DNA of 64,000 nucleotides, taken from Escherichia coli. GTDB lineage: Bacteria; Pseudomonadota; Gammaproteobacteria; Enterobacterales; Enterobacteriaceae. The stretch lies in NCBI RefSeq assembly GCF_003018255.1, contig NZ_CP027440.1; one strand, written 5' to 3'. Made by a program: the position numbers and the translations under genes. Positions within the stretch are counted from its first letter, which is position 1. Each line of letters starts with the position of its first letter. Positions 18,368-29,119 of this stretch are shown piece by piece. The notes beneath the pieces are model-generated. The model was not told where the DNA came from. It saw nothing but the letters and a program-made list of their open reading frames with translations, and did not search any database.

Positions 18368-18518
18368 AGGTTGCTCCGGGCTATGAAATAGAAAAATGAA
18401 TCCGTTGAGGCCTGCTTTTTTATACTAACTTTAGCGAAACGGGAAGGTAAAAAGACAAAAAGTTGTTTTTAATACCTTTAAGTGATACCAGATGGCTTTG
18501 CGCCATCTGGCAGAGTAA

Positions 18519-19053: not shown

Positions 19054-20343
19054 TTATTGGCAAAAAAATGTTTCATCCTGCACCGCACGGTTAACCGCTA
19101 CGGTCAGACGCTGCAACTGTTGCGGGAGAATAATATAGGGCGGCATCAGGTAAATCAGTTTGCCAAAAGGCCGGATCCAGACACCCTGTTCGACAAAGAA
19201 TTTTTGCAGCGCTGCCATATTCACCGGACGAGTGGTTTCGACCACGCCGATTGCCCCCAGTACGCGCACATCGGCAACCATTTCGGCGTCACAGGCGGGG
19301 GCAAGTTGCTCGCGTAGCTGCCCTTCAATAGCCGCCACCTGATGCTGCCAGTCGCCAGATTCGAGAATCGCCAGGCTGGCGTTTGCTGCTGCGCAGGCCA
19401 GCGGATTGCCCATAAAAGTTGGCCCATGCATAAAGCAGCCGGCTTCGCCGTTACTGATGGTTTCCGCAACCTCGCGCGTGGTGAGCGTGGCGGAAAGGGT
19501 CATTGTGCCGCCGGTTAAGGCTTTACCGAGACACAAAATATCCGGCGCGATATCTGCATGTTCACAGGCAAACAGTTTGCCGGTACGACCAAATCCGGTG
19601 GCGATCTCGTCAGCAATCAGCAAGATACCTTCGCGATCGCACATTTTGCGGATTCGTTTTAACCATTCCGGATGGTAGATGCGCATCCCGCCTGCGCCCT
19701 GGACAATCGGTTCAATGATCACGGCGGCGATTTCATGACGATGTGCCGCCATCAGGCGGGCAAAGCCCACCATATCGCGTTCATCCCATTCACCATCCAT
19801 GCGGCTTTGCGGGGCGGGAGCAAACAAGTTTTCTGGCAGATAGCCTTTCCACAGGCTGTGCATTGAGTTGTCCGGATCGCACACAGACATCGCGCCAAAG
19901 GTATCGCCATGATAACCATTGCGGAAGGTCAGAAAACGCTGGCGCGCTTCGCCTTTGGCCTGCCAGTACTGCAACGCCATTTTCATCGCCACTTCCACCG
20001 CTACGGAACCGGAGTCCGCGAGAAAAACGCATTCCAGCGGTTGCGGCGTCATCGCCACCAGTTTGCGGCACAGCTCAATGGCTGGCGCATGAGTGATACC
20101 ACCAAACATCACATGCGACATGGCATCAATTTGCGTCTTCATCGCCGCATTAAGCTGCGGGTGATTGTAGCCGTGGATCGCCGCCCACCAGGACGACATA
20201 CCGTCAACCAGGCGTCTGCCGTCAGACAAAATTAGCTCGCAACCTTCGGCGCTCGCCACCGGATAAACCGGTAGCGGGGAGGTCATGGATGTGTATGGGT
20301 GCCAGATATGGCGTTGGTCAAAGGCAAGATCGTCCGTTGTCAT
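19054..20343 (-). CDS. bioA: adenosylmethionine-8-amino-7-oxononanoate aminotransferase
   Basis: ORF trimmed to [20 protein letters not shown] (429 aa); class-III aminotransferase; divergent from bioB across the bio operator. Confidence 0.95.
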
Positions 20344-20348
20344 AATCG

Positions 20349-20390
20349 ACTTGTAAACCAAATTGAAAAGATTTAGGTTTACGAGTCTAC
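20349..20390. promoter_or_regulatory. bio operator (BirA site) within the divergent bioA/bioBFCD promoters
   Basis: cttgtaaaccaaattgaaaagatttaggtttacgagtctac, the imperfect palindrome TTGTAAACC...GGTTTAC, sits between the divergent starts. Confidence 0.8.
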
Positions 20391-20429
20391 ACCGAATTAA
20401 CAACAAAAAACACGTTTTGGAGAAGCCCC

Positions 20430-21470
20430 ATGGCTCACCGCCCACGCTGGACATTGTCGCAAGTCACAGAATTATTTGAAAAACCGTTGCTGGATCTGCT
20501 GTTTGAAGCGCAGCAGGTGCATCGTCAGCATTTCGATCCACGTCAGGTGCAGGTCAGCACTTTGCTGTCAATTAAGACCGGAGCTTGTCCGGAAGATTGC
20601 AAATACTGCCCGCAAAGCTCGCGCTACAAAACCGGGCTGGAAGCCGAGCGGTTGATGGAAGTTGAACAGGTGCTGGCGTCGGCGCGCAAAGCGAAAGCGG
20701 CAGGATCGACGCGCTTCTGCATGGGCGCGGCGTGGAAGAATCCCCACGAACGCGATATGCCCTACCTGGAACAAATGGTGCAGGGAGTAAAAGCGATGGG
20801 GCTGGAGGCGTGTATGACGCTGGGTACGTTGAGTGAATCTCAGGCGCAGCGCCTTGCGAATGCCGGGCTGGATTACTACAACCATAACCTCGACACCTCG
20901 CCGGAGTTTTACGGCAATATCATCACCACACGTACTTATCAGGAACGCCTTGATACGCTGGAAAAAGTGCGCGATGCCGGGATCAAAGTCTGCTCAGGTG
21001 GCATTGTGGGTTTAGGCGAAACGGTAAAAGATCGTGCCGGATTATTACTGCAACTGGCAAACCTGCCGACGCCGCCGGAAAGCGTGCCAATCAACATGCT
21101 CGTGAAGGTGAAAGGTACTCCACTGGCAGATAACGATGATGTCGATGCCTTTGATTTTATTCGCACCATTGCCGTAGCGCGGATCATGATGCCGACCTCA
21201 TACGTGCGCCTTTCTGCCGGACGCGAGCAGATGAATGAACAGACTCAGGCGATGTGCTTTATGGCCGGGGCTAACTCGATTTTCTACGGTTGCAAACTGC
21301 TAACCACGCCGAATCCGGAAGAAGATAAAGACCTGCAACTGTTCCGCAAACTGGGGCTAAATCCACAGCAAACTGCCGTGCTGGCAGGGGATAACGAACA
21401 ACAGCAGCGTCTGGAGCAGGCACTGATGACCCCGGACACTGACGAATATTACAACGCGGCAGCACTATGA
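20430..21470 (+). CDS. bioB: biotin synthase (radical SAM)
   Basis: 346-aa [38 protein letters not shown] with CxxxCxxC (CPEDCKYC) cluster motif. Confidence 0.96.
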
Positions 21471-22621
21471 GCTGGCAGGAGAAAATCAACGCGGCGCTCG
21501 ATGCGCGGCGTGCTGCCGATGCCCTGCGTCGCCGTTATCCGGTGGCGCAAGGGGCCGGACGCTGGCTGGTGGCGGACGATCGCCAGTATCTGAACTTTTC
21601 CAGTAACGATTATTTAGGTTTAAGCCATCATCCGCAAATTATCCGTGCCTGGAAGCAGAGTGCGGAGCAATTTGGCGTCGGTAGCGGCGGCTCCGGTCAC
21701 GTCAGCGGTTATAGCGTGGCACATCAGGCGCTGGAAGAAGAACTGGCCGAGTGGCTGGGCTATTCGCGGGCGCTGCTGTTTATCTCCGGTTTTGCGGCTA
21801 ATCAGGCAGTCATTGCCGCGATGATGGCGAAAGAGGACCGTATTGTTGCCGACCGGCTTAGCCATGCCTCATTGCTGGAGGCTGCAAGTTTAAGCCCGTC
21901 GCCGCTTCGCCGTTTTGCTCATAACGATGTCACTCATCTGGCGCGACTGCTTGCTTCCCCCTGTCCGGGGCAGCAACTGGTAGTGACAGAAGGTGTGTTC
22001 AGCATGGACGGCGATAGTGCGCCACTGGAGGAAATCCAGCAGGTAACGCAACAGCACGATGGCTGGTTGATGGTCGATGACGCCCACGGCACGGGCGTTA
22101 TCGGGGAGCAGGGGCGCGGCAGCTGCTGGCTGCAAAAGGTAAAACCAGAATTGCTGGTGGTGACTTTTGGCAAAGGATTTGGCGTCAGCGGGGCAGCGGT
22201 GCTTTGCTCCGATACGGTGGCGGATTATCTGGTGCAATTTGCCCGCCATCTTATTTACAGCACCAGTATGCCGCCCGCTCAGGCGCAGGCATTACGTGCA
22301 TCGCTGGCGGTCATTCGCAGTGATGAGGGTGATACACGGCGCGAAAAACTGGCGGCACTCATTACGCGTTTTCGTGCCGGAGTACAGGATTTGCCGTTTA
22401 CGCTTGCTGATTCATGCAGCGCCATCCAGCCATTGATTGTTGGTGATAACAGCCGTGCGTTACAACTGGCAGAAAAACTGCGCCAGCAAGGCTGCTGGGT
22501 CACGGCGATTCGCCCGCCAACCGTACCTGCTGGTACTGCGCGACTGCGCTTAACACTAACAGCCGCGCATGAAATGCAGGATATCGACCGTCTGCTGGAG
22601 GTGCTGCATGGCAACGGTTAA
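21467..22621 (+). CDS. bioF: 8-amino-7-oxononanoate synthase
   Basis: 384-aa [28 protein letters not shown]; overlaps the bioB stop. Confidence 0.95.
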
Positions 22622-23363
22622 TAAACAAGCCATTGCAGCGGCATTTGGACGGGCAGCCGCACACTATGAGCAACACGCCGATCTACAGCGCCAGAGTGCT
22701 GACGCCTTACTGGCAATGCTCCCACAGCGTAAATACACCCACGTACTGGATGCGGGTTGTGGACCAGGCTGGATGAGCCGCCGCTGGCGAGAGCGTCACG
22801 CGCAGGTGACTGCGTTAGATCTCTCTCCGCCAATGCTTGTTCAGGCACGCCAGAAGGATGCCGCAGACCATTATCTGGCGGGAGATATCGAATCCCTGCC
22901 GTTAGCGACTGCAACGTTCGATCTTGCATGGAGCAATCTCGCGGTGCAGTGGTGCGGTAATTTATCCATGGCACTCCGCGAGCTGTATCGGGTGGTGCGC
23001 CCCGGAGGCGTGGTCGCGTTTACCACGCTGGTGCAGGGATCGTTACCCGAACTGCATCAGGCGTGGCAGGCGGTGGACGAGCGCCCGCATGCTAATCGCT
23101 TTTTACCGCCAGATAAAATCGAACAGTCGCTAAACGCCGTGCATTATCAACATTATATTCAGCCCATTACGCTGTGGTTTGATGATGCGCTCAGTGCCAT
23201 GCGTTCGCTGAAAGGCATCGGTGCCACGCATCTTCATGAAGGGCGCGACCCGCGAATATTAACGCGTTCGCAGTTGCAGCGATTGCAACTAGCCTGGCCG
23301 CAACAACAGGGGCGATATCCTCTGACGTATCATCTTTTTTTGGGAGTGATTGCTCGTGAGTAA
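22608..23363 (+). CDS. bioC: malonyl-ACP O-methyltransferase
   Basis: ORF trimmed to [27 protein letters not shown] (251 aa) with SAM-binding LDAGCGPG; overlaps the bioF 3' end. Confidence 0.92.
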
Positions 23364-24033
23364 ATGTTATTTTGTCACCGGAACGGATACCGAAGTGGGG
23401 AAAACTGTCGCCAGCTGCGCGCTTTTACAAGCCGCAAAGGCAGCAGGCTACCGGACGGCAGGTTATAAACCGGTGGCCTCTGGCAGCGAAAAGACCCCGA
23501 AAGGCTTACGTAATAGTGACGCGCTGGCGTTACAGCGCAACAGTAGCCTGCAGCTGGATTACGCAACGGTAAATCCTTACACCTTCGCAGAACCCACCTC
23601 GCCGCATATCATCAGCGCGCAAGAGGGCAGGCCGATAGAATCATTGGTAATGAGCGCCGGATTACGCGCGCTTGAACAACAGGCTGACTGGGTGTTAGTG
23701 GAAGGTGCTGGCGGCTGGTTTACGCCGCTTTCTGACACTTTCACTTTTGCGGATTGGGTAACACAGGAACAACTGCCGGTGATACTGGTAGTTGGTGTGA
23801 AACTCGGCTGTATTAATCACGCGATGTTGACTGCGCAGGCAATACTACACGCCGGACTGACTCTGGCGGGGTGGGTGGCGAACGATGTCACGCCTCCGGG
23901 AAAACGTCACGCTGAATATATGACCACGCTCACCCGCATGATTCCCGCGCCGCTGCTGGGCGAAATTCCCTGGCTTGCAGAAAATCCAGAAAATGCGGCA
24001 ACCGGAAAGTACATCAATCTTGCCTTAATGTAG
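23356..24033 (+). CDS. bioD: dethiobiotin synthetase
   Basis: GTG-initiated (M)[19 protein letters not shown] with P-loop, 225 aa; the ORF track opens 6 nt upstream at a TTG. Confidence 0.9.
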
Positions 24034-27994: not shown

Positions 27995-28125
27995 GGCTTA
28001 ACCACTAAACACTCTAGCCTCTGCACCTGGGTCAACTGATACGGTGCTTTGGCCGTGACAATGCTCGTAAAGATTGCCACCAGGGCGAAGGAAGAAATGA
28101 CTTCGCCTCCCGTATCTGGAAAGGT
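27995..28125 (+). ncRNA. molybdenum cofactor (Moco) riboswitch / moaA leader
   Basis: Structured GC-rich leader directly 5' of moaA (ctctgcacctgggtcaactgatacggtgctttggccgtgacaatgctcgtaaagattgccaccagggcgaaggaag...); the Moco RNA motif is established at this position in E. coli. Boundaries approximate. Confidence 0.55.
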
Positions 28126-28129
28126 GTAC

Positions 28130-29119
28130 ATGGCTTCACAACTGACTGATGCATTTGCGCGTAAGTTTTACTACTTGCGCCTGTCGATTACTGATGTGTG
28201 TAACTTTCGTTGCACCTACTGCCTGCCGGATGGCTACAAACCGAGCGGCGTCACCAATAAAGGCTTTCTTACCGTCGATGAAATTCGCCGGGTTACGCGC
28301 GCCTTTGCCAGTCTGGGCACCGAAAAAGTGCGCCTGACAGGCGGTGAGCCGTCTTTACGCCGCGACTTTACCGATATCATCGCCGCTGTGCGGGAAAACG
28401 ACGCTATCCGCCAGATTGCGGTCACCACCAATGGTTACCGTCTGGAACGCGATGTGGCGAACTGGCGCGATGCGGGACTTACTGGCATCAACGTCAGCGT
28501 TGATAGCCTTGACGCTCGCCAGTTTCATGCCATTACCGGGCAGGATAAATTCAACCAGGTCATGGCAGGGATCGATGCTGCATTTGAGGCCGGTTTTGAG
28601 AAGGTCAAAGTCAATACCGTGCTGATGCGTGATGTTAATCATCATCAGCTCGACACCTTTCTGAACTGGATCCAGCATCGCCCTATCCAGCTGCGTTTCA
28701 TCGAATTGATGGAAACGGGTGAGGGCAGCGAGCTCTTCCGTAAGCATCACATCTCTGGTCAGGTTCTGCGTGACGAGCTACTGCGTCGCGGCTGGATCCA
28801 CCAATTACGTCAACGCAGCGACGGTCCCGCGCAAGTCTTTTGTCATCCGGATTACGCCGGAGAGATTGGCCTTATCATGCCGTATGAAAAAGACTTCTGC
28901 GCCACTTGCAACCGCCTGCGCGTTTCCTCCATTGGTAAACTCCATCTCTGCCTGTTTGGTGAAGGCGGCGTTAACCTGCGCGATCTGCTGGAAGACGATA
29001 CCCAGCAACAGGCGCTGGAAGCGCGTATTTCAGCGGCGCTGCGGGAGAAGAAACAGACCCATTTCCTGCATCAAAACAACACCGGTATTACGCAAAACTT
29101 ATCGTACATTGGCGGCTAA
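28130..29119 (+). CDS. moaA: GTP 3',8-cyclase (radical SAM) MoaA
   Basis: ORF trimmed to [31 protein letters not shown] (CxxxCxxC), 329 aa. Confidence 0.95.

Follow-up and report, generated by a model that had tools for sequence, protein, structure and literature searches.

A common and probably ancestral G in the right arm of the Escherichia coli biotin operator, where K-12 carries A

The biotin operator (bioO) of Escherichia coli K-12, the target of BirA-biotinoyl-5'-AMP, is said to have been described by Otsuka and Abelson in 1978. BirA-biotinoyl-5'-AMP dimerises, each winged helix-turn-helix domain takes one operator arm, and the bound BirA dimer occludes both promoters, whereby bioA and bioBFCD are repressed (PMC5640590; PMC4382993). 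These two promoters are described as 'face-to-face' in a review (PMC5640590). The K-12 bioB transcription start was mapped 43 nt upstream of the ATG, and the sigma-70 -35 element given for it is aatcGACTTGTAAacca (Mendoza-Vargas et al., 2009; PMC2760140, Table S1); this published bioB -35 element, GACTTGTAA, falls within the operator (PMC2760140, Table S1).

We examined the counterpart of this operator in a 64,000-nt stretch of E. coli DNA (the window; contig NZ_CP027440.1 of assembly GCF_003018255.1) by aligning positions 20300–20460 with K-12 MG1655 (NZ_CP097883.1) and five further E. coli genomes. Over these 161 bp, the window and K-12 MG1655 differ at a single base, a G at 20383 where K-12 has A; the window reads GGTTTACGAGTCTAC at 20376–20390, the K-12 segment aligned to it reads GGTTTACAAGTCTAC, and the sequence of 20341–20393 is CATAATCGACTTGTAAACCAAATTGAAAAGATTTAGGTTTACGAGTCTACACC. 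The same G is present in the B2-type strains 536 and ATCC 25922. A sequence-only reading of the window had set the bio operator against the K-12 sequence and suspected one differing base in its right BirA half-site, in the stretch that separates the divergent bioA and bioB; the alignment with the K-12 bioA-bioB region and the other strains bears out the K-12 sequence it gave, the site, and the difference itself, since the reference is not identical. Its placement of the base at the edge of the half-site was correct as to the right arm but too far out, as the base is not the outermost one but the fifth from the outer end of the arm.

Judged by its sequence, the 40-bp element in the window is a textbook biotin operator, i.e., a known element with a common allele, and every feature of bioO that can be read from sequence is present (Table 1): an imperfect inverted repeat of about 40 bp with two 12-bp arms and 16 bp between them, a location between divergently transcribed bioA and bioBFCD, and an overlap with the promoter, whereby the K-12 bioB start and -35 element lie in the operator and the window is identical there. 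An independent repeat finder returned the inverted repeat as 20348–20362 / 20373–20387, with 87% complementarity. G20383 is the 8th of the 12 right-arm bases (operator position 36), and the 12/12 arm symmetry of K-12 is lost at this position alone. Read on the opposite strand, the base takes second place in the conserved 9-bp core and turns TTGTAAACC into TCGTAAACC. This half-site core (TTGTAAACC / GGTTTACAA) is kept among relatives; in the window the left core is intact, and the right core has the form GGTTTACGA, which is found in 27 of 44 related operators among the matches listed. As for the flanking genes, the list of open reading frames holds a longer bioA frame that reaches upstream of the annotated start.

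Table 1. Features of the bioA-bioBFCD control region and its genes in the window
Feature	Position	Strand	Basis or remark
bioA CDS, 429 aa	19054..20343	-	Annotation of identical strain JNE23-011 and K-12
bioO, 40-bp operator	20348..20387		GACTTGTAAACC + 16-bp spacer + GGTTTACGAGTC; 39/40 bases as in K-12
Left operator arm, GACTTGTAAACC	20348..20359		Sequence read
PB (bioBFCD) -35 hexamer, TTGTAA	20351..20356	+	PMC2760140, Table S1; 17-bp spacer to TAGGTT
PB -10 hexamer, TAGGTT (inferred)	20374..20379	+	Invariant in 44/44 among the matches listed; only 20376–20379 imposed by the search pattern
Right operator arm, GGTTTACGAGTC	20376..20387		11/12 complementary to left arm; 12/12 in K-12
Polymorphic base	20383		G here, A in K-12; mirror partner T20352
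-10-like hexamer, TAGACT (inferred PA, bioA, -10)	20384..20389	-	Conservation in 44 species among the matches listed
bioB transcription start	20387	+	K-12 mapping, transferred by sequence identity
bioB CDS, 346 aa	20430..21470	+	ORF table and JNE23-011 annotation
Rest of rightward operon	21467..24033	+	bioF 21467–22621, bioC 22608–23363, bioD 23356–24033

Other positions of the operator vary in nature as well. At 20365 in the spacer, where the window has G, E. coli TL012, the Escherichia-clade genome E69, and Citrobacter have A; of the 44 species in the matches listed, 24 have A, 19 have G, and one has C. In E. coli A39, the left-arm core carries a C-to-T change at the equivalent of 20358 (TTGTAAATC), a base that is otherwise invariant in all other E. 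coli and outgroup operators of the alignment behind the tree described below; the 44-species set is uninformative there, because its search pattern imposed this base.

TAGGTT, the putative -10 hexamer of the bioB promoter, has the correct spacing to both the -35 hexamer and the mapped start, and 20383 is located at -4 of this promoter, 4 bp upstream of that start. On the other strand, the hexamer next to 20383 has the form TAnnnT in 44/44 species among the matches listed, where it occurs as TATACT (20), TAGACT (14), TAAACT (3), and also as TATGAT, TAGGAT, and others. TAnnnT is the signature of a -10 element, and we take it for the putative -10 of the leftward bioA promoter; 20383 would then be the first base downstream of TAGACT, at -6. 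A bioA -10 at 20389–20384 fits the 'face-to-face' description (PMC5640590); no bioA start site was found in the literature searched. A model in which a bioA -35 hexamer lies over 20383, changing from TTGTAA to TCGTAA on the minus strand, was dropped: its matching -10 (TTGGTT / ATGGTT) is not conserved, and TAnnnT at 20389–20384 is instead invariant in the 44 species among the matches listed. A simple promoter scan called no promoter inside the operator, as both bio promoters score under its thresholds.

We then measured how common the two alleles are in 5,426 complete E. coli genomes by megablast with 55-base queries, in which the variable base is central; every 28-base seed therefore spans it, and genomes with the alternative allele yield no seed. 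The G query matched 1,949 genomes (36%), including 536, JJ1886, LF82, and ExPEC XM, and the A query matched 3,469, including K-12 derivatives, C43(DE3), O157:H7, and O111:H8. Together they make 5,418, which is exactly how many genomes cover at least 80% of the 161-bp query, so the two alleles account for essentially all E. coli. G20383 is thus a common natural polymorphism rather than an error or a private mutation.

Among the 5,426 genomes, seven lack any match to the bioA-bioB control region, and in two cases the match is plasmid-borne. A second natural variant, G to T at the equivalent of 20385 (GGTTTACAATTC), was found in 177 complete genomes, apparently of O111-type and related large-genome STEC isolated from cattle and humans. 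Read on the minus strand, it converts TAGACT to TAGAAT, which is nearer the -10 consensus, and it may affect bioA transcription more than the 20383 variant does.

Over 24 kb (window 8000–32000), the sequence is identical only to JNE23-011 and JNE112863, two Japanese human isolates, and the next-best genomes are 98.7% identical; by this comparison the window is from an uncommon lineage, distinct from that of strain 536. Somewhere upstream of bioA, JNE23-011 has one extra base. At 18414–18428 the window matches the phage lambda attachment-site core GCTTTTTTATACTAA exactly; the site lies in the ybhC-ybhB intergenic region, and is unoccupied. On the same ybhB side, O157:H7, O111:H8, O84:H7, and ETEC4075 carry prophage or type III effector genes (nleH1-1, nleD, espJ, nleA, and a phage head-binding protein gene), and in strain 536 an InsQ/TnpB gene sits between ybhB and bioA. 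The sole Rfam match in the window at the gathering threshold is a molybdenum cofactor riboswitch (RF01055, 103 bits) at 27998–28142, upstream of moaA.

To look beyond E. coli, one genome per species was scanned with the pattern TTGTAAACC-N16-GGTTTAC, which returned at least 120 loci. The pattern demands an intact left arm (it imposes 20351–20359) and GGTTTAC, and the number of loci is a lower bound, so the sample is biased and incomplete, and Salmonella and E. fergusonii are absent from it. At the loci just upstream of a BioB homologue among the matches listed, the next base after the pattern is G in 28 of 45, A in 16, and C in one. Over the 44 Enterobacteriaceae operators among the matches listed, the counts are 27 G, 16 A, and 1 C, making 20383 the most variable position of the right arm. 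Among these same matches, 20384, 20388, and 20389 are invariant (44/44) although the pattern does not impose them, 20385–20387 vary, and 20348–20350, which also lie outside the imposed pattern, are conserved in 42–44 of the 44 species. Because 20383 is the most variable base of the arm across species, BirA probably tolerates either base there, and any effect of the allele, such as the slightly altered repression of both bio promoters that the sequence-only reading had proposed, is likely to be small.

The scan also returned matches in distant organisms. In Clostridia, Paenibacillus, Treponema, and Spirochaetales, many operator-pattern matches occur on both strands with a 2-base offset and are therefore perfect palindromes of the form TTGTAAACC-N14-GGTTTACAA; these are probably BirA sites in distant phyla rather than chance matches. 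In Klebsiella oxytoca NBRC 105695 the pattern is present in the locus, yet no operator is found in the 110 bases that immediately precede the BioB homologue, and the control region there appears to be arranged differently or interrupted.

The G is shared by E. albertii and by two genomes labelled E. coli, SCPM-O-B-8794 and E69; the latter two are only 91–94% identical to the window in bioA-bioD, which places them outside E. coli proper. Among the matches listed, it is also found in several Citrobacter, Kluyvera, Pluralibacter, Pseudescherichia, Kosakonia cowanii, Trabulsiella, and Buttiauxella, and A occurs mainly in the Enterobacter cloacae complex, Cedecea, and Lelliottia. A neighbour-joining tree was computed from 3,677 shared columns of bioA-bioD, with four A-carrying and five G-carrying E. 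coli and four outgroups. The A strains (K-12, O157:H7, O111:H8, and A39) are monophyletic in 199 of 200 bootstraps, and their clade is nested among the G-carrying E. coli (the window, 536, O84:H7, ETEC4075, and PCN033); each of the four outgroups has G. Since the A clade is nested in G strains and the outgroups have G, the tree is most simply read with G as the ancestral base and the K-12 A as a derived one that arose once, in the lineage that would have led to the clade with K-12, O157:H7, and O111:H8. Recombination in the bioA-bioD region could blur this history. Between E. coli strains this region diverges by 3–4%, a high value for core genes. The sequence-only reading had treated the G as a change in the window's operator, and here the direction appears to be reversed: the G is widespread (E. 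albertii, the Escherichia-clade genomes, Citrobacter, and 27/44 operators among the matches listed), it is carried by 36% of complete E. coli genomes, and the K-12 A would be the derived allele.

Our preferred reading, to which we assign a probability of about 0.82, is that G is one of two common alleles and the ancestral one, that an operator carrying it would work normally, and that the effects of the allele would be small. Against this stands the possibility that G20383 is a sequencing or assembly error, or that the A is a laboratory mutation specific to K-12. Either is next to impossible, as nothing beyond the difference being a single base speaks for them, and both are refuted by the allele counts and the 24-kb identity: a G shared by 1,949 independent complete genomes does not come from sequencing error, the window matches two independent assemblies over 24 kb, and the A occurs in 3,469 genomes that include wild, clinical, and animal isolates (O157:H7, O111:H8). 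It is also very improbable that the G is a lesion of the operator-constitutive type that derepresses the bio operon in the window's strain. Such mutations, laboratory-selected for derepression, were reportedly described by Barker, Kuhn, and Campbell in 1981, and the G does lie inside an operator arm; however, it is not a derived change against a wild-type population but an apparently ancestral base, carried by 36% of E. coli and by the outgroups, and it is the majority base in related genera with an intact bioA-bioBFCD and operator. A derepressing lesion would not be expected to stay conserved for so long, which speaks against such a lesion.

We consider it unlikely that the G is a functional regulatory allele, one that weakens the BirA half-site or the overlapped promoters and shifts the biotin set-point or the bioA:bioBFCD ratio relative to K-12-like lineages. 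Its position would suit such a role: it breaks an otherwise perfect arm symmetry, falls within the 9-bp core on the other strand, stands at -4 of the mapped bioB start, and adjoins the strongly conserved bioA-strand -10-like hexamer on the downstream side; in addition, G and A are partitioned by lineage in the tree, not scattered. On the other side, 20383 varies freely in Enterobacteriaceae among the matches listed, where the adjacent positions are invariant, both alleles remain frequent, and the literature searched yielded no experimental support. That search, of partial coverage, found no binding or expression data for the G or the A allele and nothing addressing base 20383 among operator mutants, footprints, or a BirA-DNA structure, and neither 12-mer arm is quoted in a bio context in the literature it covered. 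It is likewise doubtful that the switch between an ancestral asymmetric and a derived symmetric bioO measurably retunes BirA occupancy or the bioA / bioBFCD output between phylogroups, e.g., B2 and D versus A, B1, and E.

Neither the left arm, the GGTTTAC of the right arm, nor either -10 hexamer is altered by the G. The alleles are old, frequent, and interchangeable among species, and on these grounds the G-bearing operator is predicted to repress normally, with at most a small quantitative difference; any difference between the alleles in BirA affinity or promoter strength would be expected to be small. We infer that G and A are nearly neutral with respect to each other, and a small regulatory effect of the allele may exist. 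Should such an effect prove measurable, E. coli phylogroups would differ slightly in biotin regulation, along lineage lines. The polymorphism also bears on how K-12 is used. The perfectly symmetric bioO that serves as the model for BirA-DNA studies would be derived and restricted to a single clade of E. coli, K-12 should not be taken as the ancestral reference at 20383, and operator models or BirA motifs drawn from K-12 would overstate the symmetry of natural sites.

The closest described system is the K-12 bioO itself, with which the window's operator shares the locus, the arrangement of 12-bp arms around a 16-bp spacer, the flanking genes, and 39 of 40 bases; K-12 differs in having A at operator position 36, where the window has G, and in arms that pair at 12/12 rather than 11/12 positions. 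The bio operator of E. albertii carries the same G and, together with its flanks, equals the window over the 65 bp compared, although bioA-bioD of that species is only about 90% identical to the window. In Citrobacter the operators also have the G, and they differ by an A in the spacer at the equivalent of 20365 and by bases downstream of the operator. The operator-constitutive bio mutations are likewise single-base changes in the 40-bp operator, but they were selected in the laboratory, whereas the G described here is a natural allele of high frequency and, by the simplest reading of the tree, the ancestral one.
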